Part shown: in pieces, positions 1 to 10,384 of the stretch | Numbering within the stretch: position 1 is the stretch's first letter | Layout: each line of letters begins with the position of its first letter | Source of the DNA: a virus | Virus genome (UHGV): UHGV-0132701 | Length of the DNA stretch: 40,066 nucleotides | Direction: 5' to 3' (one strand) | Notes under the pieces: model-generated | Told to the model about the DNA's origin: nothing | Database searches by the model: none | The model's input: only the letters and a program-made list of their open reading frames with translations | Made by a program: the position numbers and the translations under genes

Positions 1-176
1 CTGCAGGGGACACCATTTATCAGTTCGCTCCCATCCGCACCAGTCCGCAAAATCCCCTGAATATCAAGCCTTCCGTATATTCACGGTTCGTCATGGTTCG
101 CGTCAGATCGTTGACAGCCGCACACCATGACGGGTAAAAAGTGGATAAAATAATTTTACCCACCGGATTTTTACCC

Positions 177-1334
177 ATGCTCACCGTTAAGCAGATTGAA
201 GCAGCAAAGCCGAAAGAAAAACCATACCGCCTTCTCGATGGTAATGGCCTGTACCTTTATGTCCCTGTATCAGGGAAAAAGGTATGGCAGCTTCGCTACA
301 AGATTGACGGTAAGGAGAAAATCCTGACCGTCGGAAAATATCCGCTTATGACTTTGCAGGAGGCAAGGGATAAAGCATGGACCGCGAGGAAAGACATCTC
401 GGTTGGTATCGATCCGGTAAAAGCGAAAAAGGCTTCGTCTAACAACAATTCCTTTAGCGCCATTTACAAGGAATGGTACGAGCACAAGAAGCAAGTCTGG
501 TCAGTAGGCTATGCAAATGAACTTGCAAAAATGTTTGATGACGACATTTTACCTATCATCGGCGGCCTTGAAATTCAGGATATTGAGCCGATGCAACTGC
601 TGGAAGTAATCCGCAGATTTGAAGATCGCGGTGCAATGGAGCGAGCAAATAAAGCCCGCAGAAGATGCGGCGAGGTTTTCCGTTACGCTATTGTCACCGG
701 AAGGGCTAAATATAACCCGGCACCTGACCTTGCTGACGCCATGAAGGGATACCGCAAGAAGAACTTCCCGTTTCTTCCAGCAGACCATATCCCTGCATTT
801 AACAAAGCACTGACAACATTTTCAGGAAGTATCGTATCGCTCATTGCGACCAAAGTTTTACGCTACACAGCCCTAAGAACGAAAGAGCTTCGTTCCATGC
901 AATGGAAGAACGTCGATTTTGAAAACAGGATTATCACTATCGACGCCAGTGTGATGAAGGGACGCAAAATTCATGTGGTTCCTATGTCAGATCAGGTGAT
1001 TGAACTTCTCACTACGCTAAGCTCAATCACTAAACCAGTGTCAGAGTTTGTTTTTGCCGGGCGCAACGATAAGAAGAAGCCAATTTGCGAGAACGCTGTA
1101 CTACTTGTGATCAAACAAATCGGCTATGAAGGTCTGGAAAGCGGTCACGGATTCAGGCATGAATTCAGCACGATTATGAACGAGCACGAATGGCCTGCTG
1201 ACGCTATTGAAGTGCAACTGGCACATGCCAACGGCGGATCTGTGCGTGGGATTTACAACCATGCTCAGTATCTCGATAAGCGCAGAGAAATGATGCAGTG
1301 GTGGGCGGACTATCTAGACGGCAAGGTGGCGTAA
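177..1334 (+). CDS. intS: Tyrosine recombinase, P4-type phage integrase (IntS-like); ATG at 177 preferred over GTG at 141
   Basis: N-terminus MLTVKQIEAAKPKEKPYRLLDGNGLYL matches the arm-binding domain of P4-family integrases; C-terminal catalytic region has HGFRHEF and a GIYNHAQY tyrosine motif. Length 385 aa and sequence agree with my recollection of E. coli K-12 IntS (CPS-53, argW-associated); symbol from recall, not verified. Confidence 0.85.
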   Translation: MLTVKQIEAAKPKEKPYRLLDGNGLYLYVPVSGKKVWQLRYKIDGKEKILTVGKYPLMTLQEARDKAWTARKDISVGIDPVKAKKASSNNNSFSAIYKEWYEHKKQVWSVGYANELAKMFDDDILPIIGGLEIQDIEPMQLLEVIRRFEDRGAMERANKARRRCGEVFRYAIVTGRAKYNPAPDLADAMKGYRKKNFPFLPADHIPAFNKALTTFSGSIVSLIATKVLRYTALRTKELRSMQWKNVDFENRIITIDASVMKGRKIHVVPMSDQVIELLTTLSSITKPVSEFVFAGRNDKKKPICENAVLLVIKQIGYEGLESGHGFRHEFSTIMNEHEWPADAIEVQLAHANGGSVRGIYNHAQYLDKRREMMQWWADYLDGKVA

Positions 1335-1343
1335 TGCCACCCA

Positions 1344-1661
1344 TCACACCACCCTGTCGTCTTCGATCACACTGTTGATGAAGTACGTCACACACCACAT
1401 CACTTCCACCTCTTCCGCAGCAGCCCCCTCTATCGCTTCACCATCATCCGTAATTAACGCCCTACCCATGACCCTGGCAAACTGTGTCCTGCCACCGATG
1501 AGTATTAGCAGAACCTGATTCTGTACCAGCCTGGTGCACGGTTCGATAACGGCAAAGCCGGATGATGTTTCGAGGATGCGGCTGTGCATGCCGATCCCGC
1601 AGATACGCTCCGGTGTTAACCGCTGCTCTACGTAGTCTCCCGCCGGTGAAGGAAAGCCCAT
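1344..1661 (-). CDS. Hypothetical small protein (105 aa), acidic C-terminus, second gene of overlapping pair
   Basis: Six-frame ORF, translationally coupled to the upstream 82-aa ORF, convergent with the integrase gene. Confidence 0.4.
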   Translation of the reverse strand: MGFPSPAGDYVEQRLTPERICGIGMHSRILETSSGFAVIEPCTRLVQNQVLLILIGGRTQFARVMGRALITDDGEAIEGAAAEEVEVMWCVTYFINSVIEDDRVV

Positions 1662-1909
1662 CAGTGAACCCTCCCCATGTTGCGCAGGATCCAGTAGTGA
1701 TTGTCGGTTCCGTCAGTTGTCTTGTCGGTGAAGTCGGGCTGATAGCGCTCTATCCACTCGTTGGCGTCGGCCCGGCTGAAATGCCAGTGGACCTTTGCCA
1801 GCTCGCGGATAAAGTCTTCTGTGCGTAAGCACCTGTAGCCCTTGGGGTTTAGCTGTATTGCGGCCACAAATGAGGCGTGAATGTCGTGACTGCGGGGCAT
1901 GATCTGCAC
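1661..1909 (-). CDS. Hypothetical small protein (82 aa), first gene of an overlapping two-gene cassette
   Basis: Six-frame ORF; its stop overlaps the start of the downstream 105-aa ORF (ATGA-type overlap at 1661). No recognisable motif. The opposite-strand ORF 1562..1828 looks low-complexity and less likely real. Confidence 0.4.
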   Translation of the reverse strand: MQIMPRSHDIHASFVAAIQLNPKGYRCLRTEDFIRELAKVHWHFSRADANEWIERYQPDFTDKTTDGTDNHYWILRNMGRVH

Positions 1910-2076
1910 TCCTTTTACCTGTTTTTATATACAGTAGTTTTAAAGTAGATTCAGATCAAGATGGCTAGGCCTATCAATGGAGCGACCATGAGATTTAGCA
2001 GTTTGCGAACGCCGCTCCTCCCTCAAGCGAAACCACCGTGATATATTTACGCCACACACACTATAAGGATCTTAAG

Positions 2077-3258
2077 ATGAAAGTTGCTGTTTTGATGATG
2101 CAAAAGGATGAGTACCGGCTTCTTGAGCCATGGATACTGCATCATGCTGAGCTTTTTGGCCTTGAAAATTTATACGTCTACGATAACGGGTCGGCAGATG
2201 AGCGATGCCTTAACGTTCTGAAGGAATATTCGGGAAAAGGGATGAATGTCGTTTATGACAGAAGCACCTTTGATGATTTCAATACCAGACATATCTACTT
2301 CGTAGACAAATACGAAGAATTAAAGAATTCTCATGGCTATGATTTTATGATGCCACTTGATTGTGATGAGTTTGTTGGCGTTGAGTTTTCAAAAGGCAAG
2401 GTGTCACTATCAAAAAATGATGTGTCGAATGAATTATCAAAATATATAGAAACCGATGCTACATTTAAAATTAAATATACATATGGCAACCACCCGCTTA
2501 ACCCAAAAGAATTTGTGCTAAGACCTAAACCTGAGAAAGTGTTCTTTCCTAAATCAAGAATAACTGCTCTGGGGAATGGTTTCCATCGCGGTGAAGTTGA
2601 GTCAGGACAACAGGTTGATACTGATATCATTTACCTTCACTTCCATCATAAAAACTATGATGACTATATCGCCAGCGCCCGTAATAAACTGGAAGGTCTT
2701 GTTGACGTTAATGATATTGAGGCTCTGAAGGCATTCAAAGGGGCGGGTCACCATTTAGTTAAAAAGTTCCTGATGACTCAGACCGAGTATTACGATATGC
2801 ATGCGGCTTCAAAGTCTATCAACCCGTCTAAGTTCTTTGTTATGGATGGCGTTTATGAATACCTGAAGGGTATAGGGCTGGATCTGGAGCAAACATTAAC
2901 TGTTGAACATGATGAAAGTCTAATAACATGGCATGGTTATGTAGACAAGGTGAGAGAAGATGATGGGTCATGCGTCTTCACGGGGTGGTGCTCTCCAAGC
3001 CTGAACGTTAATCAAGAGTTTTTTTTCCTGCGAGTAGGTCATGAAATACTCCCAGGATTCCTGGAGGGGAAAATACAGCGCTCAGATGTCGTAGCTAAAT
3101 TCCCTGATTACAATCTCCAGTGTGGTTTCTCTGTAAGATTCTACGGGGTAACAAAGGGCTCTTTGCAGCGCAATGAGTGGGAGTTTCACGTTTCTGCTGG
3201 TCACAAAGGTACTGGCTCAAAGCTAAACAGAAAGAAAAACGAATCATACTTCCAGTAA
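2077..3258 (+). CDS. GT-A fold (family 2-like) glycosyltransferase with about 150-aa C-terminal extension of unknown function; candidate lysogenic-conversion enzyme
   Basis: Motifs VAVLMMQKDE...LEPWILHH...LYVYDNGSADE and a DxD-like MPLDCDEF typical of GT-A nucleotide-sugar transferases. Markedly AT-rich relative to flanking DNA. RBS aaggat before the ATG at 2077 (in-frame ATG also at 2038). No obvious transmembrane segments. Confidence 0.6.
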   Translation: MKVAVLMMQKDEYRLLEPWILHHAELFGLENLYVYDNGSADERCLNVLKEYSGKGMNVVYDRSTFDDFNTRHIYFVDKYEELKNSHGYDFMMPLDCDEFVGVEFSKGKVSLSKNDVSNELSKYIETDATFKIKYTYGNHPLNPKEFVLRPKPEKVFFPKSRITALGNGFHRGEVESGQQVDTDIIYLHFHHKNYDDYIASARNKLEGLVDVNDIEALKAFKGAGHHLVKKFLMTQTEYYDMHAASKSINPSKFFVMDGVYEYLKGIGLDLEQTLTVEHDESLITWHGYVDKVREDDGSCVFTGWCSPSLNVNQEFFFLRVGHEILPGFLEGKIQRSDVVAKFPDYNLQCGFSVRFYGVTKGSLQRNEWEFHVSAGHKGTGSKLNRKKNESYFQ

Positions 3259-3263
3259 AAGAA

Positions 3264-3284
3264 GGCGGGAAATCCCGCCTTTTA
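3264..3284. terminator. Bidirectional rho-independent terminator between the glycosyltransferase gene and the convergent late operon
   Basis: GGCGGG-aaat-CCCGCC hairpin flanked by an A-run upstream and a T-run downstream. Confidence 0.6.
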
Positions 3285-3402
3285 CTTTCTCAACCTTATA
3301 GCATCGAATGCTTCCCGTTAGCAGTCAATTGTCGCATAGGGCAGTTCTAATTTCGCATAATTATAACACTGCTCGAAGATATTAGGGCCATTCAGATCGT
3401 AA

Positions 3403-3696
3403 TCACACTCCGTTGCCAACAACCTCCGCATTTGGTTCAACTGCATCGAACGCAATACACGCGGCGGCATATAGTGCGTCTATTGCAGACAATGGAAACA
3501 TCGATAATGCGCAGGAATCACGAAACTCGTTCAGATCAGGCTTATTCCCATAGACTTTAACGGCAGTATTTGGTTTAAGATAAAAACCAGCGCTCCACCC
3601 GTTACCGCGCACTTCAACAATGGCAATGCTGTTAATTCCTTTAACCAATACACCGTCAAATTTGAAAGCACCGCTTGCTGTTTTCATTTTAATCAT
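3403..3696 (-). CDS. Hypothetical protein (97 aa), translationally coupled to the 61-aa ORF
   Basis: Start MIKMKTASG preceded by GGAG; overlaps the upstream stop by 8 nt. No recognised domain. Confidence 0.45.
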   Translation of the reverse strand: MIKMKTASGAFKFDGVLVKGINSIAIVEVRGNGWSAGFYLKPNTAVKVYGNKPDLNEFRDSCALSMFPLSAIDALYAAACIAFDAVEPNAEVVGNGV

Positions 3697-3874
3697 TCTC
3701 CGTAACAGTTTTATTGTGAGCAGCATTTAGTGCTCGCTGGAGTGGCTGGTCATTTTCGCGATCTAATTCTGCCTGCAATGCGTTCATAGCCACTGTAAAG
3801 GCAGGAACTTCCTGCCCGGTTAAATTAACTCTCAGCATGAACTGCATGATATTTTGAATAGTTTGCTTATCCAT
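3689..3874 (-). CDS. Hypothetical small protein (61 aa) immediately downstream of the tailspike
   Basis: ORF starts 12 nt after the tailspike stop with an RBS-like aggac; its stop overlaps the start of the next ORF. Confidence 0.45.
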   Translation of the reverse strand: MDKQTIQNIMQFMLRVNLTGQEVPAFTVAMNALQAELDRENDQPLQRALNAAHNKTVTEND

Positions 3875-3886
3875 TTTATTGTCCTG

Positions 3887-5344
3887 TTAAGTTAAACCAA
3901 TTAATCCATGCCCGGTCGAAGCATGTAAGTCCTGAATTAATGCTGCAACTACCTTTGCTAAATCTTCGTGAGTTATTGTTCCAGAGTTAAATGCTGCTCG
4001 GGATACGGTGCCGGTTGGCGAACCCCATCCCGTTCTCCTCTCTGAAATAACTTGATTGCCATTAAGTCGTATTCTTAAGTTGGTGAAATTAGCCCAGTTC
4101 TCAGTCCTGTTGAAACTCAAATATGTTGTATTTGCCGGGCCCGTTCCTACCGTAATTCGTTGATTGTCGCCCAACAAAATAGCGCAATTGTTACTGAACC
4201 CGGATTCAGTTAACGAAAGTCCGACGCGGAAGTTGCCGCTTCTGAAACGAATTCCGTTCGCTGCGTTTGATAAAATGGAACCCTCAAGGCGCATATACTC
4301 GCCATTGCCCACAACAGTGGTGACTTCCGTCGGTGCGACGATAGAGTCACCCCTGAACAACATGCCGGTCCAGATGAAACCGTTTGGCGCATTTAAGCCC
4401 CTGCCAATGTTGATCATGTGGGTTATGCGATTGCTACCGTCAGTGGTAGTGCATACCAGCCCCCTGGTGTTCCCTACATTCTCAGCGCCAACCATCCACC
4501 CAGCGTCCACACTGCATCCATTATTCATGTTGAATTCATGGATAATTGCGGATTTTGCGCCAGTGTTTAATCCTCCTGACCCAGCAGGGCCAGATACAGC
4601 GCCGTAAGACCATCCCCCCCACACTTCTGCATCCGCATGTCTGGCTTCTCCCCGAAAATGCCCTCCTACTAACTGGCCTGTGCCGCCATTATGACGAACG
4701 GCAGATGTCACTGCGGCGCCGTATGCTGATCCTCCTTGTTTCTCGAGATATCCGTAAAAGCAACCCTGTTCCCAGCGAGCTACGCCATCATCACGCGTGG
4801 CGTTGGATTTCTTTTCCACCCATAACACTGGATCCGGAGTATCAGTTAGCGGAATGGAAAATCTTTGGCGCATGGCGTTCGTATATTGAATTGAGCCGGT
4901 ATTGTAAATATTCACGCCGCCTGCATCGGCTCCAGACCAGCCAGTGCCCCCATATAAATTGTTCAGTCCATCTCCAGCGGGGCCAGCCAGGATCAATCGC
5001 AACTGGTCAGGGTCATATTTGAGTACATTCGGGAAATAATGTTGCCGAGCTCCGAAGGAGTCCAAGACCTCCATTGAATGTCCTTGCACGGTTACAAATT
5101 TTGAAACCTTCCCGTTATATACCGGGTAACCAGCAGCGTTAATGATGATTGGTTGCGAAACAGGAACGTGAGAACCGTCTTCATTCTCTACATAAACCTG
5201 AATCTGGTTTTCAGGATTTACCGGGTCAGTGTCAATTTTACCGATATAAATTTTGCCATTGGCTACGGCTTTAAAAGAACGCGCCATAGTGAAGAGTTGC
5301 GAAGGCATGCTTACCACAACATTTGCATTTATTGAATCTGTCAT
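3887..5344 (-). CDS. Tailspike protein: P22 gp9-like N-terminal head-binding domain fused to a divergent receptor-binding domain
   Basis: First ~110 aa ([62 protein letters not shown]...QGHSMEVLD...VLKYDPDQ) closely match the P22 tailspike head-binding domain; the remainder (485 aa total, shorter than P22) is unrelated to the P22 endorhamnosidase as far as I can tell. Confidence 0.9.
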
Positions 5345-6534: not shown

Positions 6535-6640
6535 AATGCAAGAACCTTTGTTGTGATGTATGCTTGCATTATATACACTGTACACACATACAAGCAAGCA
6601 TAAAACTAAAACAAAATGCTTGCATTACAACCGCGCTACT
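6534..6640. promoter_or_regulatory. Divergent promoter region with four copies of an ATGCTTGCA(TTA) operator-like motif (two direct, two inverted)
   Basis: ATGCTTGCATTA at 6560-6571 and 6616-6627; reverse-complement partial copies at about 6534-6542 and 6593-6603; lies between the 322-aa gene and a divergent small ORF. Confidence 0.45.
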
Positions 6641-6690
6641 CCAACTACACATTATCATCTGGTATCCTGCGCAAAACTAAGGAGGTTGGT

Positions 6691-6879
6691 GTGAAGAAAA
6701 AATTTGTAAACGTTGCAAAGTGCGCAATTTTTATATTTTTTATGACCTTTTACGGATTTAGTGCCGGAGAAGGTTTCGATCGTGATGCCAATGCATTCAG
6801 TTTCTTTTGTCTGTCTATAGTGGTCATAATTGTATGGGTGGAATTAAAGCAAACATTGTTTCATGTGCTAGGGAAATAA
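6691..6879 (+). CDS. Small hydrophobic protein (62 aa, two predicted membrane helices), GTG start
   Basis: Strong RBS aaggagg 6 nt before GTG; hydrophobic stretches CAIFIFFMTFYGF and FSFFCLSIVVIIVWV; AT-rich; divergent from the 322-aa gene. Confidence 0.4.
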   Translation: MKKKFVNVAKCAIFIFFMTFYGFSAGEGFDRDANAFSFFCLSIVVIIVWVELKQTLFHVLGK

Positions 6880-6896
6880 CCATCCATGGCATTTAG

Positions 6897-9089
6897 TCAC
6901 TGCTGTGTTGCCTCAGTGGCAAGCAGCGGTCTGATGGCATTTGCAGCTTTGCTTAACGCTCTTTCATAAGCTGGCGTTCCAGCTTTAGTGTTTGCCAGAC
7001 GTAAGAGCGCATTCCTAGCCATAGGGCTTTCATAAACCCTCGACATAAGGCCAATCCCTGTTTCCCCAGCCAATAGCGCGCCTCCGGTTTTTAGGTTACC
7101 AATAACCCTTACCAAAGGCGCGAGTGTCATGCCAGTCTTCGTCACAACATTAGCCTCAGATGCTCTTTTGGTAGCATCGAGAATAGATAACATCCCCTCT
7201 ATCTCTTTTCCGTTCTTCCCACCAAATACAGTTTTAAACACCTGACCATTTGCTTGTTTTTGCAGCTTGCCAAGCTCGGTCATCATTTTCTGAGGGCTGT
7301 CACCTACCTTGTCAGCTATTTTGCTGATATATGCCGCCCTTAGCATGTCTTTACCTTTTTGATCGAGTTTCCCGTACAATCGAGCTATATCTGACCCATA
7401 TTGTCCATACACAATGGTATTTACAGCCTCGGGAGTTAAATCTCCTTTGTTTAGAACGTTTTTAAGGCGCGTTTGAGTTGCATGTGTTGCCATTTTTGCA
7501 TAATCAGCTTTTCCCGCTCTCCATGCTGAAGCATCTTTTGGGCTAAGTCCTTTCGCTATAGATTTACTAAGGCTATTGGTTAGCGAGTTGTAGACCCTGT
7601 CGACCATTGTTTGCGACATTGATGGCAGAACTGTACGATCGCCTTTTACGTCAATGCGGAACTGAGTTCTCAGCTTATCAAGTAACTCAAAGGCATCATC
7701 TCCATTTGTTATCTCCTGAATGGCATTCTTATAATCATTAAGCGCAGAAATGGTCTGGGTGTCAGAAACACCTTTAAGTTTCCCAAGTTCGTTTACTGCT
7801 CCGTCGATAGCTCTTATGGCGCCACTTGTATCAACTGGCTTTCCAACCATTCTTCCTGACAGGTTGTTTAGTTTTGACTTGGCTAACGATTTTTCCCTTG
7901 CAACGCCTGACTTTAGACTATCAACGACTACAGATGGATCGTAGTCGCCGTATTTTTCGGTGAAGCGATTAACAAGCTTGGTTCTAGCATCCTGCTGTGC
8001 GGCTCTCATTGGTCCAGTCCCAGCTATGACTCCTTCTGAGTAACCCTGCAGTTGATTGCCAAGTTTTGTTTTTGGAGGAACTACATCCGATGTCATAACT
8101 GGTACATCTGCCGCAGCGGCACGCTTGAGCAATTGCTGATCTGCTGGTGATATTTCGCCACGAACAGCAGTAATTCCACGCCCTATTCCCTTTGCTGCTG
8201 CGGAAAGAACCCCCTGAGCGGCAAGGTTAACTCCGGCATTTTTAGTTGCATTTTGTGCGAAATCGCCTTTCTGATTTGCGGCCTCTGCCAGTGATCCAAT
8301 AGCCATGCTTCCTGCCGTTCCAACTCCTGGAACTAAATACCCGCCAATTGTTTCACCGGCTTGCGCGTAGGGGTCTGTCGGTCTGTCTACTGGACGATAA
8401 ACATCATCCAAAACCTTGGGCCCACCAAGCCCCTGACTGATTGCATTAATCAGACTTGCGCCACCCTGCAATACGTCAAATGGTATGTTTACCAGACCAC
8501 GACCAGCCTGTTCTGCAATTTGCCCTGCACTTTGACCACCAGTGAGCCAATCGCCAGCTTGTTGCATCAATGATGGTTCTTCTTTCTGCTGCTGAGGCGC
8601 TGCCTGTGTACTTTGCTGTACAGGCTGTTGTGTAGCTTGATTCTTCCTAGGGAGGTATTCATCAGCTTGCTGGTTGTGCAGACTCTCCGCATATGCAGTG
8701 GCATCGTCAGGATTGTCGAACATACCAAGATGCTTTCCCGTCCTCATGAAGTTATCAATAGCTTCATCATCAGACATAATGCGACCATCATCACTAACGG
8801 TAGGAATCAGCACCTCTCTACCATCTATATTGGTAGACATGCTCCGCACAGTGCTAATGCTGCCATCAGAGTTTTTAACAACAGGCCGATTGTGAATGTC
8901 AATATTACCCTTCTCTAGCAGACCTCTAGGGTAAGCAGAGTAAAACGCTTGTTTTGCCTGCTCTGCATTTTCTCCGGCTTGCGGGGCAACGACTTCATTG
9001 AAGTATTGTTCCTGAGCCTGCGCTTTTTGTTCTGGTGCTAACGCCTGATACTGTGGAGAGGCGATAACATCTTTCCATGCTTTAGCCAT
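6897..9089 (-). CDS. Ejection (injection) protein, P22 gp16 position
   Basis: 730-aa ORF in conserved synteny (gp14-gp7-gp20-gp16 order) after the tail needle; Gln/Ala-rich linker and Gly-rich segments typical of ejection proteins. Confidence 0.7.
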   Translation of the reverse strand: MAKAWKDVIASPQYQALAPEQKAQAQEQYFNEVVAPQAGENAEQAKQAFYSAYPRGLLEKGNIDIHNRPVVKNSDGSISTVRSMSTNIDGREVLIPTVSDDGRIMSDDEAIDNFMRTGKHLGMFDNPDDATAYAESLHNQQADEYLPRKNQATQQPVQQSTQAAPQQQKEEPSLMQQAGDWLTGGQSAGQIAEQAGRGLVNIPFDVLQGGASLINAISQGLGGPKVLDDVYRPVDRPTDPYAQAGETIGGYLVPGVGTAGSMAIGSLAEAANQKGDFAQNATKNAGVNLAAQGVLSAAAKGIGRGITAVRGEISPADQQLLKRAAAADVPVMTSDVVPPKTKLGNQLQGYSEGVIAGTGPMRAAQQDARTKLVNRFTEKYGDYDPSVVVDSLKSGVAREKSLAKSKLNNLSGRMVGKPVDTSGAIRAIDGAVNELGKLKGVSDTQTISALNDYKNAIQEITNGDDAFELLDKLRTQFRIDVKGDRTVLPSMSQTMVDRVYNSLTNSLSKSIAKGLSPKDASAWRAGKADYAKMATHATQTRLKNVLNKGDLTPEAVNTIVYGQYGSDIARLYGKLDQKGKDMLRAAYISKIADKVGDSPQKMMTELGKLQKQANGQVFKTVFGGKNGKEIEGMLSILDATKRASEANVVTKTGMTLAPLVRVIGNLKTGGALLAGETGIGLMSRVYESPMARNALLRLANTKAGTPAYERALSKAANAIRPLLATEATQQ

Positions 9090-10384
9090 TAATCACCCCA
9101 TAGTGAAGAAAAGTTATTGCCAGCAGGAGATTGTTGTCCTGGCGTATTCTGCACCGGCTCCTGATAATCAAACTGTTTTTTAACAGTGATCAATTTGCTT
9201 TCAAGCTGATTTCTAATCTTTCCGATAGAGTCACGAAAAGCCTTTTCACTCATTTTTGGACTTAGAGCACCAACCGCATCGGATAATTTTTTACCCTCAG
9301 CATCTGAAAGAGCCCCCATCCCCTTCAGGGACTGCACCATAGGGAGGAAAGTTTGAGCTTTAAAGGTATCTAGCCTTGCTTCAAAGTTAGCCGCATCGGA
9401 TCCAGGAACTGTCGTAAACGCTGAGCGAATGCCTACTGCTTTTGAAAGGCCGGGGCTTTGCTCTATCTCGTTGAGAGAATCAAGCGCAGTGCTGAACGTA
9501 TCAACAGCGCCCTGAGCGGCGGCCTGTCTGTCCGCGCGGGCTATGTCAGCCTTTTGCCGAACATCTGCCTGTTTCTGCTTTAACTCTTCAAGCTTTAACT
9601 GATTGCTTTCTCTGGCTATCTGTCTGTCCAGAGCCTTTTCTTGTAATTCTGCTCTTTGTATTTCGCGGGAAAGAGCAGCATTCTGTGCACTGATGTTCTG
9701 TCCACGTATCTGGATGTCCTGACCTCGAGCTGTTAGTGCTTCTCCGGCCTGATTGCTGCGGATTGTCTCTGCCAGCCTGCCTCGGTCAATCTCACGACCA
9801 GCAATCTTGTCCTGAACATTGAAGTAATCATTAGGACCAAGTGCAGCCATTCCAAGGTGATCAACAAACTCACCAAATCCTGAAGGATTCTGCTGATACA
9901 TCTGAGCAACGTTATTAGGGTCAACACCGACGCGAGTCAGTTCCTTGGCGTTGTTTTGCAGCCATGATTGCATTGCTTCTGGAGACGAGGCCGCAAGGCG
10001 TGCGCCAGCCGCTAAGGTGCCGATAGAATTACGCTGATCTTCATCAATGAATCCCATGCCTTTACGAACGGATTCAATCTGTTCTGGATATTGAGTAGCC
10101 AACTGACGCAAAGCACCGCGATCACCAGACGCATAAGCATTAGCGTATGCCTGCTGAAATTCTTTCTGCCGCTGAGCCTGCTTTTCCTGCTGAAACACCC
10201 CCGCAATACCTGAAAGGCCTTGCAAAGCAGTCAGCCCAACATTGTTAGCGCCTGAACGCTCAATATCATTGTTCTGCCTGATAAGCTGAAGCGTATTGCC
10301 GATGTCATTTACGCTCGGAGCGTTTGAGTTGACGCCGCCGATACCAGCCAACAATCCGCCGTTTGTTCCTTGCCAAGTAGCCAT
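9089..10384 (-). CDS. Ejection protein, P22 gp20 position
   Basis: 431-aa ORF, coiled-coil-rich, stop/start overlap with neighbours; synteny. Confidence 0.7.
   Translation of the reverse strand: MATWQGTNGGLLAGIGGVNSNAPSVNDIGNTLQLIRQNNDIERSGANNVGLTALQGLSGIAGVFQQEKQAQRQKEFQQAYANAYASGDRGALRQLATQYPEQIESVRKGMGFIDEDQRNSIGTLAAGARLAASSPEAMQSWLQNNAKELTRVGVDPNNVAQMYQQNPSGFGEFVDHLGMAALGPNDYFNVQDKIAGREIDRGRLAETIRSNQAGEALTARGQDIQIRGQNISAQNAALSREIQRAELQEKALDRQIARESNQLKLEELKQKQADVRQKADIARADRQAAAQGAVDTFSTALDSLNEIEQSPGLSKAVGIRSAFTTVPGSDAANFEARLDTFKAQTFLPMVQSLKGMGALSDAEGKKLSDAVGALSPKMSEKAFRDSIGKIRNQLESKLITVKKQFDYQEPVQNTPGQQSPAGNNFSSLWGD

Follow-up and report, generated by a model that had tools for sequence, protein, structure and literature searches.

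What does a single glycosyltransferase gene do in the place where related prophages keep their serotype-conversion genes? The question is raised by the 40,066-nt viral genome UHGV-0132701 (the whole stretch analysed, hereafter the window), a P22-like E. coli prophage of the IntS/argW kind in which a gene for a GT-A glycosyltransferase (GT) lies between integrase and tailspike. Related phages keep the O-antigen-modifying genes gtrABC or oac in this integrase-to-tailspike slot. Phages that convert the serotype of their host influence O-antigen diversity, the targets of vaccines and typing, and the host range of phages. In enterobacteria, conversion is known to proceed through membrane Gtr systems, through acetyltransferases or by a swap of polymerases; a lone soluble GT-A enzyme in the canonical conversion slot would escape screens for Gtr, acetyltransferase or polymerase genes.

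We find that the integrase of the window is 98% identical to IntS of the K-12 prophage CPS-53, and that its homologues adjoin tRNA-Arg argW in E. coli genomes. The K-12 gene order is argW-intS-yfdG/yfdH/yfdI (gtrABS, plus strand), followed by tail genes on the minus strand, just as an earlier, sequence-only reading of this locus had described it. The comparison with K-12 also bears out that GT occupies the slot that an IntS/argW P22-like prophage uses for cargo or seroconversion genes, with the membrane gtrABS of CPS-53 replaced here. The position of the GT gene, between the integrase/att end and the tail-spike or tail-fibre genes, is that of Gtr-type genes, and the gene orientations make it convergent with the minus-strand tailspike operon, again as proposed. 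Coordinates are collected in Table 1.

Table 1 Features of the integrase-to-tailspike interval, in window coordinates
Feature	Position	Strand	Basis or remark
IntS-type tyrosine integrase	141..1334	+	Pfam Arm-DNA-bind_3, Phage_int_M, Phage_integrase; prophage left end, defines the slot
Pair 1, second gene, 105-aa 'UmuD-like' protein	1344..1661	-	phrog_3469, E 2e-44
Pair 1, first gene, 79-82-aa protein	1661..1909	-	phrog_3893, function unassigned; likely start ATG at 1900 behind RBS AAGGAG (1661-1900)
LexA (SOS) box TACTGTATATAAAAACAGGT (CTGT-N8-ACAG)	1917..1936	-	directly upstream of pair 1
GT moron cassette (candidate promoter, GT gene, terminator)	~2005..3317	+	insertion relative to GT-less prophages
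Candidate extended -10 element TGATATATT of the GT gene	2039..2047	+	inferred; conserved in 7/7 aligned GT-bearing loci
Soluble GT-A glycosyltransferase, 393 aa	2077..3258	+	catalytic domain, helical subdomain, C-terminal beta-sandwich
GC-rich hairpin terminator AAGGCGGG-AAAT-CCCGCCTT	3262..3281	.	between the convergent GT gene and small-gene/tailspike operon
Out-of-frame remnant, last 30 codons ECDYDLNGPNIFEQCYNYAKLELPYATIDC	3318..3470	-	conserved C-terminus of the 80-aa allele of pair 2, second gene
Pair 2, second gene, recombinant, 94 aa from ATG 3687 (107 aa from 3726)	3403..3687	-	allele comparison
Pair 2, first gene, 61-aa protein of a 52-62-aa family	3689..3874	-	directly follows homologous tailspikes
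Tailspike, 485 aa	3887..5344	-	P22 head-binding domain 1-115 (PF09008, E 4e-61)

The limits of the cassette emerge from comparison with the GT-less E. coli EC31 (L092), where the order is intS, pair 1, 96 nt, small genes, tailspike; homology to EC31 ends at ~1978-2004 and resumes in the small genes. Among otherwise collinear prophages the cassette is present in L001, L002, L004, L089 and L105-L111 and absent from L092, L118-L120, L122 and L129. The GC content of the GT gene is 40.9%, versus 48.0% for the window, 55-56% for the neighbouring pair and 48.3% for the tailspike, while that of 1979-3317 is 41.8%, such that the AT-richness first pointed out from the letters of the sequence is real yet moderate. 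The terminator claimed for GT was likewise recovered as a hairpin, preceded by an A-tract and followed by a T-tract; the terminator scan flagged the minus-strand orientation, and the plus-strand T-tail was read by eye. A consensus promoter scan flagged no sigma-70 site at the -10 element, and the promoter therefore stays a candidate. No direct or inverted repeats were found flanking the cassette, hence no transposon signature, and Rfam at E ≤ 0.1 returned just one sub-threshold sroH fragment, outside the region. Given this presence/absence polymorphism, its own terminator and its lower GC, the GT gene behaves as an autonomous, horizontally acquired moron.

The two flanking small-gene pairs, which the same reading had assigned to the cargo, exist as genes, pair 1 overlapping as TGATG (stop of the first, start of the second) and pair 2 separated by a one-base gap, but they do not belong with GT: pair 1 lies behind a LexA box and occurs with or without it, and pair 2 follows tailspikes, which makes both separate modules. 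The LexA box ahead of pair 1 is close to TACTGTATATATATACAGTA, is the sole such site in the 40-kb window (0.01 expected by chance) and is invariant in 8 loci, GT-less L092 included; pair 1 is a widespread operon behind this box irrespective of GT. PGAP annotates 240-nt CDSs at loci homologous to its first gene, and dN/dS is 0.16-0.45 for the first gene and 0.16-0.18 for the second. The resemblance of the 105-aa protein to processed UmuD'/HumD is limited to their N-arm, which its first ~20 residues (MGFPSPAGDYVEQR) mimic; the NCBIfam HumD and the PDB UmuD' and UmuD matches are confined to residues 1-21, and a Pfam search finds neither a Peptidase_S24 domain nor any other match. We rejected its identification as a true UmuD or S24 peptidase, as the match is to the N-arm only. 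A literature search on LexA/UmuD-like antirepressor pairs returned nothing specific to these genes; an SOS-box operon encoding a UmuD'-arm mimic would bear on prophage induction.

The first gene of pair 2 belongs to a family of 75 clusters, all annotated hypothetical, with dN/dS 0.12-0.25, and it stands directly behind a homologous tailspike in prophages of the P22-like and TipJ/GpJ types as well as in Kagunavirus LM02P1 and Phapecoctavirus. Pair 2 trails homologous tailspikes across four phage types, even lytic myoviruses and siphoviruses, with the first gene present without the second in Kagunavirus. It is an accessory of the tailspike module, not GT cargo. The receptor-binding domain of the tailspike shares 59% identity with its counterpart in Kagunavirus LM02P1 and 28% with Phapecoctavirus nieznany gp226, and it comes from a family without a solved structure; PDB matches cover tailspike residues 1-116 only. 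A 53-aa protein accompanies one tailspike family in podoviruses, siphoviruses and myoviruses alike, and this tailspike-linked protein may concern tailspike biogenesis.

The second gene of pair 2 is a recombinant. Its ATG at 3687 lies one base past the TAA of the first gene with GGAG ahead, and a start at 3726, giving 107 aa, probably overstates its length; compared with L001, L002 and L004, the segment ~3416-3748 has been replaced and matches L091 and phage nieznany. An N-terminal part of the nieznany/L091-type allele is fused to the other allele in a different reading frame, which removes the conserved C-terminal motif, and the gene may be inactive here; the 107-aa ORF was rejected as an intact gene on account of this out-of-frame hybrid structure. 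These features bear on the suggestion, also made from the sequence, that both pairs are toxin-antitoxin modules. The pairs are small, co-oriented and tightly spaced or overlapping, and all members are without an assigned function, yet we regard the suggestion as highly improbable. No toxin-antitoxin family is hit in Pfam, NCBIfam, PADLOC or PHROGs, where pair 2 has no match at all, and no member falls in any Pfam, NCBIfam or PADLOC family; a canonical LexA box precedes pair 1, whose 105-aa member carries the UmuD'-like arm; the first gene of pair 2 is strictly tied to one tailspike family, lytic phages included, and does without the second in Kagunavirus; and disruption of the second gene here is accompanied by no sign of a compensating loss of the first.

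The GT protein itself shows the single Rossmann-like α/β/α GT-A fold of a GT2/GT92-like clan, with a match to PF13704 (Glyco_tranf_2_4) over residues 11-106 (35.0 bits versus a cut-off of 27.5, E 2e-8). The catalytic domain carries DNGS and an invariant D95-C-D97, the DxD metal/nucleotide-sugar motif, together with conserved catalytic residues: across 34 homologues D95-C96-D97-E98-F99, D36, G38, S39, H170 and H226 are invariant and H188 and H190 nearly so, and the conserved motifs align with DVDEY, GVH and HYH of the galactan synthase GalS1. No transmembrane segment is found (maximum hydropathy 0.76). This agrees with the original proposal of a soluble GT-A enzyme with an additional C-terminal domain. 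We read the product as a metal-dependent (DxD), probably inverting enzyme from a family engaged in building surface polysaccharides of bacteria. The proposed C-terminal extension of ~150 aa exists, but not as one block, for it resolves into a helical subdomain (~194-265), a disordered linker (273-279) and a beta-sandwich (~285-375, ~100 aa). The beta-sandwich weakly resembles CBM-like and teichoic-acid-enzyme accessory domains, and in the model it probably binds the acceptor glycan or mediates oligomerisation.

GT misses the threshold of CAZy GT92/PF01697 (15.9 bits versus a cut-off of 23), has no match in PADLOC or NCBIfam and no family in PHROGs, and finds in BFVD by Foldseek only distant giant-virus and uncultured-phage GT2/GT92 models (TM ≤0.51); a literature search on PF13704 gave nothing specific to this gene. 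We looked for membership of a well-characterised host biosynthetic family, which would have argued against a novel function, and GT does not belong to one.

GT is rare, found in 3 of 5,426 complete E. coli genomes and, by tblastn, in none of 50,697 phage records, but it is under strong purifying selection in both domains (dN/dS 0.04-0.085 at dS 0.47-1.9), the mark of a working gene. Its sequence cluster, P0001, counts 148 members. The cassette occurs in differing phage backbones, P22-like and, at yciB, TipJ-type, and once beside an unrelated 832-aa spike, while a 50%-identical relative precedes a holin/SAR-endolysin/Rz cassette, another classic moron site; these placements point to independent capture in at least three phage contexts. 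Rarity, an AT-rich, foreign look, the lack of an enterobacterial cellular homologue among the best 80 genome loci and the recombination scars around the gene could all be expected of a passenger, a fragment of a foreign polysaccharide cluster hitch-hiking in the recombination-prone int-tailspike interval and inert in E. coli. We consider this extremely improbable in view of the selection on the gene (dN/dS 0.04-0.085 at dS up to 1.9), its repeated capture, and an ORF that is intact, with conserved upstream signals, in 11/11 loci inspected.

Surface-glycan modification is our best reading of GT, since its two-domain relatives lie in polysaccharide gene clusters. All four of the two-domain cellular relatives inspected are inside bacterial polysaccharide clusters, which hold GT2, GT4, WbsX/RgpF, UDP-glucose dehydrogenase, NTP-transferase and sulfotransferase genes. 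This context also bears on two other readings. GT might instead glycosylate a protein or peptide. Its substrate would be part of the virion (for instance the neighbouring tailspike), a protein of the host surface, or a small peptide in the manner of SunS, a peptide glycosyltransferase that is the second-best structural match of GT; virion glycosylation occurs in mycobacteriophage. We judge this unlikely, as identity to SunS is just 8-10%, the two-domain relatives do not adjoin peptide or adhesin genes, and GT is convergent to the late operon with signals of its own. GT is also missing from prophages that share its tailspike and small genes, so the virion does not need it. A role in defence or counter-defence, with GT glycosylating a nucleic acid, nucleotide or small-molecule signal that protects prophage or host or evades host immunity, would suit a rare gene without assigned function that is mobile among phage backbones and sits in an accessory position typical of defence morons. 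It is nevertheless very unlikely in our view: GT matches no PADLOC model, no partner genes travel with it and its family context is polysaccharide synthesis. Phage DNA glucosyltransferases known so far require hydroxymethylated bases, and no base-hydroxymethylation pathway is seen near the GT gene.

Surface-glycan modification, then, is the reading we develop here: working within the cell, GT probably alters a sugar polymer of the host surface. More specifically, we propose that the cassette is a moron for lysogenic conversion whose enzyme glycosylates an envelope glycan from the cytoplasmic side, a one-gene alternative to gtrABC, and we give this proposal an even chance. Counting against it are the want of an enterobacterial cellular homologue among the best 80 genome loci, the missing promoter call and the structural match to SunS. 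GT would be expressed in the lysogen from its own promoter, would take as donor a nucleotide sugar already in the cytoplasm, and would extend a lipid-linked intermediate of an envelope glycan by one residue on the inner side of the cytoplasmic membrane; an O unit or ECA unit linked to Und-PP, or lipid A-core, could be the acceptor. Export of the modified glycan would then alter both the receptor for tailspike-bearing phages and the antigenicity of the cell. Because such a reaction is cytoplasmic, one gene would match the work of the periplasmic three-gene membrane Gtr system. Fold, motifs, solubility, cassette limits, optional occurrence, purifying selection and the gene neighbourhoods of relatives are observed, whereas expression in the lysogen, donor, acceptor and phenotype belong to the proposal.

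Is the acceptor the receptor of the phage's own tailspike? GT copies are 82-100% identical, while identity among the adjoining tailspike receptor-binding domains ranges from only 32% to 100%, and the O-antigen clusters of two carrier strains differ (O18 and O102); GT is confined to no single O serogroup and no single tailspike allele. The O18 and O102 hosts and the divergent or unrelated spikes therefore weaken the simple model of an enzyme that alters the very receptor bound by the accompanying tailspike. The acceptor would have to be a conserved glycan or a motif that several serotypes have in common; otherwise the target is not O antigen at all. A tentative extension, possible but in our estimate improbable, makes GT a one-gene, cytoplasmic, serotype-independent surface remodeller of enterobacterial phages, a Gram-negative counterpart of TarP decorating a glycan or primer present in many E. 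coli; candidates are a common O-unit motif, ECA or intermediates built on Und-PP-GlcNAc, or the LPS core. A common acceptor would explain why the same GT stands beside such different receptor-binding domains in hosts of both serogroups. Such an enzyme would imply broad exclusion of glycan-targeting phages and a conversion route missed by gtr/oac-based prophage screens. More generally, if GT remodels an envelope glycan, it would represent a new one-gene cytoplasmic path to lysogenic conversion in Gram-negatives and a compact glyco-engineering tool.

Several characterised enzymes invite comparison. GalS1, the GT92 galactan synthase (PDB 8d3t), is 15% identical to GT with a PDB profile match at E 0.034, a resemblance that is structural only; it is a plant Golgi enzyme with an accessory domain unlike that of GT, and donor and acceptor of GT are for this reason not inferable from it. 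The sublancin precursor, encoded alongside SunS (the SPbeta-prophage S-glycosyltransferase, PDB 7msp/7msn), receives its sugar from SunS on a cysteine, whereas GT has no such accompanying peptide gene. TarP, the S. aureus prophage-encoded wall-teichoic-acid GlcNAc transferase (PDB 6h1j), is comparable to GT at ~18% identity over 162 aligned residues, but acts in a Gram-positive host on a teichoic acid acceptor, whereas GT is a predicted enzyme of an E. coli prophage; the C-terminal domain of TarP is a trimerisation domain whose homology to the beta-sandwich of GT is not established.

Among argW-integrating P22-like coliphages, Kapi1 of E. coli MP1 alters the O antigen without gtr or oac and carries an uncharacterised cargo gene between tailspike and integrase, hyp24, to which its authors could not assign conversion (bioRxiv 10.1101/2021.04.09.439263). 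We rejected Kapi1 as an identical case, as hyp24 is acyltransferase-like and not this GT; an envelope-remodelling GT would nonetheless help to explain conversion without identifiable gtr or oac, of which Kapi1 is an example. The closest parallel in organisation is with gtrABC (gtrABS) of P22, Shigella Sf phages and CPS-53 and with the Sf6 Oac acetyltransferase. GT is ruled out as part of a gtr cassette, being a single gene without a transmembrane segment or a Gtr family match, and the gtr cassette comprises three membrane proteins (flippase, bactoprenol glucosyltransferase and serotype-specific periplasmic glycosyltransferase) where GT is a single soluble one. The gtr and oac cassettes and GT nevertheless have the same slot and the same moron logic, and their selective purpose, the alteration of receptor and serotype, is probably shared.

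Five genes separate the integrase from the tailspike: a minus-strand pair (pair 1), a glycosyltransferase (GT) and a second minus-strand pair (pair 2). The integrase shares 98% identity with the IntS protein of CPS-53, a cryptic prophage of K-12. There the order is argW-intS-yfdG/yfdH/yfdI (gtrABS, plus strand), and the tail genes that come next are on the other strand. The sequence-only reading had described this layout, correctly as checked against the K-12 region itself, and the match places the window interval in the same slot. The observation made there is confirmed overall; of its interpretation, a cargo GT in a seroconversion slot holds up, but the small pairs as toxin-antitoxin (TA) modules or GT partners do not.

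Features of the integrase-to-tailspike interval and related loci (window coordinates unless a compared locus, L-number, is named)
Feature	Coordinates	Strand	Remarks
Tyrosine integrase	141-1334	+	Left end of window; Arm-DNA-bind_3, Phage_int_M and Phage_integrase domains
Pair 1	1661-1909 and 1344-1661	-	Co-oriented
'UmuD-like' protein, 105 aa	1344-1661	-	phrog_3469
Canonical LexA/SOS box TACTGTATATAAAAACAGGT	1917-1936	-	Directly upstream of pair 1
Candidate extended -10 TGATATATT	2039-2047	+	Conserved; followed by RBS and ATG of GT
GT ORF, 393 aa	2077-3258	+	Sole plus-strand gene of the five
GC-rich hairpin terminator	3262-3281		Within GT cassette, after the gene
ORF ending in the conserved C-terminal 30 codons of the second pair 2 gene	3318-3470	-	Separate ORF
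Pair 2	3689-3874 and 3403-3687/3726	-	Second minus-strand pair
52-62-aa family members	3689-3874; L090 4080-4238; L003 5214-5372; L128; L129	- (window)	
Tailspike, 485 aa	3887-5344	-	N-terminal P22 head-binding domain, PF09008, E 4e-61

The GT ORF matches PF13704 (Glyco_tranf_2_4) at 35 bits, above the Pfam cut-off of 27.5, and scores under the Pfam threshold for GT92. In an AlphaFold model that draws on 34 homologues (mean pLDDT 89.5), a helical subdomain (~194-265) follows the GT-A core, and a disordered linker (273-279) joins it to a beta-sandwich (285-375). The protein has no hydrophobic segment (top 19-residue hydropathy 0.76) and so is soluble or at most peripheral. Exhaustive HMMER searching returns 1,024 representative clusters at E ≤ 1e-3, the majority spanning the catalytic domain only and a few dozen with the two-domain architecture. 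The top genome loci come from Acetobacteraceae, cyanobacteria, Alteromonas/Paraglaciecola and Azomonas, with no enterobacteria among the best 80. All four two-domain cellular relatives inspected reside in polysaccharide gene clusters, beside genes for multi-domain GT2, GT4 and WbsX/RgpF proteins, UDP-glucose dehydrogenase, NTP-transferases and sulfotransferase/APS-kinase, which argues that this is a family of cytoplasmic polysaccharide-assembly GTs. Set against this company, glycosylation of a protein or peptide is an unlikely activity for the phage enzyme, and a part in defence or counter-defence chemistry is less likely still.

The interval is polymorphic among complete E. coli genomes: 20 match parts of it, only 3 of them with the GT. 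E. coli EC31 has intS, pair 1, 96 nt, small genes and the tailspike, GT absent, and since its homology to the window ends at ~1978-2004, the cassette measures ~1.3 kb (~2005-3317). Its GC content is 41-42%, versus 48% for the window and 55-56% for the adjoining pair; a search for flanking repeats found none. Seven IMG/VR contigs and several Logan and RefSeq loci also have the cassette, with a GT protein 82-100% identical; one cassette-bearing locus is a TipJ-type prophage integrated at yciB, and at one the adjacent spike is an unrelated 832-aa protein. The closest non-identical relative (50% identity; L093 148-2645, a phage contig) lies directly upstream of a holin/SAR-endolysin/Rz-Rz1 lysis cassette, which gives the GT lineage an independent second site as a moron; among 50,697 deposited phage genomes, no GT homologue is detectable. 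The GT is an optional, mobile cassette. Across prophage copies its dN/dS is 0.04-0.085 at dS 0.47-1.9, strong purifying selection that extends over both domains and indicates a working gene rather than debris; that it is an inert passenger is very improbable.

Pair 1, whose genes overlap as TGATG, belongs to phrog_3893 (unknown function) and phrog_3469. The 105-aa phrog_3469 protein resembles UmuD'/HumD over its first ~20 residues only (MGFPSPAGDYVEQR...), the match beginning with the first residue past the UmuD autocleavage site, and no S24 peptidase domain is detected in it; apparently it mimics the N-terminal arm of UmuD'. The LexA box is the single occurrence in the 40-kb window (0.01 expected by chance) and is invariant in eight loci, GT-less ones included; this operon at the prophage end is probably DNA-damage induced. 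No member of either pair gives a TA match in Pfam, NCBIfam, PADLOC or PHROGs, and pair 1, common beside intS without the GT and under purifying selection, is not a GT partner; it is best described as a predicted SOS-controlled operon. That it modulates Pol V or RecA, or acts as an antirepressor linked to SOS, is speculation.

Pair 2 follows the tailspike instead. Its first gene encodes a 61-aa member of an enterobacterial protein family (52-62 aa; 75 clusters, every one annotated hypothetical). In every context examined, a tailspike gene of one and the same receptor-binding family lies 10-20 nt upstream of it: P22-like and TipJ/GpJ-type prophages, Kagunavirus LM02P1 and Phapecoctavirus. These contexts span podo-, sipho- and myovirus genomes and two prophage types. 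This constant linkage makes it a tailspike accessory gene, not GT cargo, possibly serving tailspike assembly. In its stretch at 3887-4984, beyond the head-binding domain, the short tailspike has no PDB sequence relatives, and homologues of its receptor-binding domain in the phage collection are confined to one Kagunavirus, the siphovirus LM02P1 (59% identity), and a few Phapecoctavirus-like phages (26-28% for the Phapecoctavirus myoviruses). RefSeq/PGAP calls the tailspikes of L002 (strain PK12; 8383-9819), L091 and L092 (EC31) truncated pseudogenes ('phage head-binding domain-containing protein, incomplete'). The L002 ORF is intact at 478 aa, which points to an artefact in how this tailspike family is annotated; in L091 and L092 the receptor-binding domain is alignable by tblastn.

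The second pair 2 gene has two allelic forms sharing a C-terminal motif, ...FEQ...K..PYA..IDC. In the window (3403-3726) the N-terminal part of the allele matching L091 and the Phapecoctavirus phage nieznany is fused out of frame to the other allele's tail, and the conserved C-terminus survives only in the separate ORF at 3318-3470. L004, a nearly identical prophage with a 99% identical GT and a 100% identical tailspike, keeps an intact 80-aa gene; the window copy is therefore a scar of recombination, perhaps inactive.

Elsewhere, an 87-aa plus-strand ORF (6616-6879) with two hydrophobic stretches occupies an AT-rich gap (~37-40% GC) between a P63C-domain gene and an ejection-protein gene, where the related prophage L004 carries a SieA-family gene; it may be a superinfection-exclusion moron.

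Because the gtr/oac slot, the moron anatomy and the family role agree, we propose that the GT would glycosylate a lipid-linked envelope glycan on the cytoplasmic side, leading to lysogenic conversion, a reading to which we assign roughly even chances. Carrier strains E3 and 19KM1803 have an O18-family and an O102 O-antigen cluster, respectively, and carriers number only 1 among the 69 O18 genomes and no more than 2 among the 107 O102 genomes. Beside GTs that are 82-100% identical, the receptor-binding domain of the adjoining tailspike ranges in identity from 32 to 100%, which, with the differing O clusters, argues against strict pairing of the GT with its own tailspike's receptor; the candidate acceptors that remain are a motif common to several serotypes and a conserved glycan (ECA, core). 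The Gtr route uses three genes and is periplasmic, whereas the alternative proposed here is single-gene and cytoplasmic. The closest functional analogue, structurally similar as well, is TarP, the prophage-encoded wall-teichoic-acid GlcNAc transferase of S. aureus, and the GT, by its predicted function, belongs with a known kind, the phage lysogenic-conversion glycosyltransferases.
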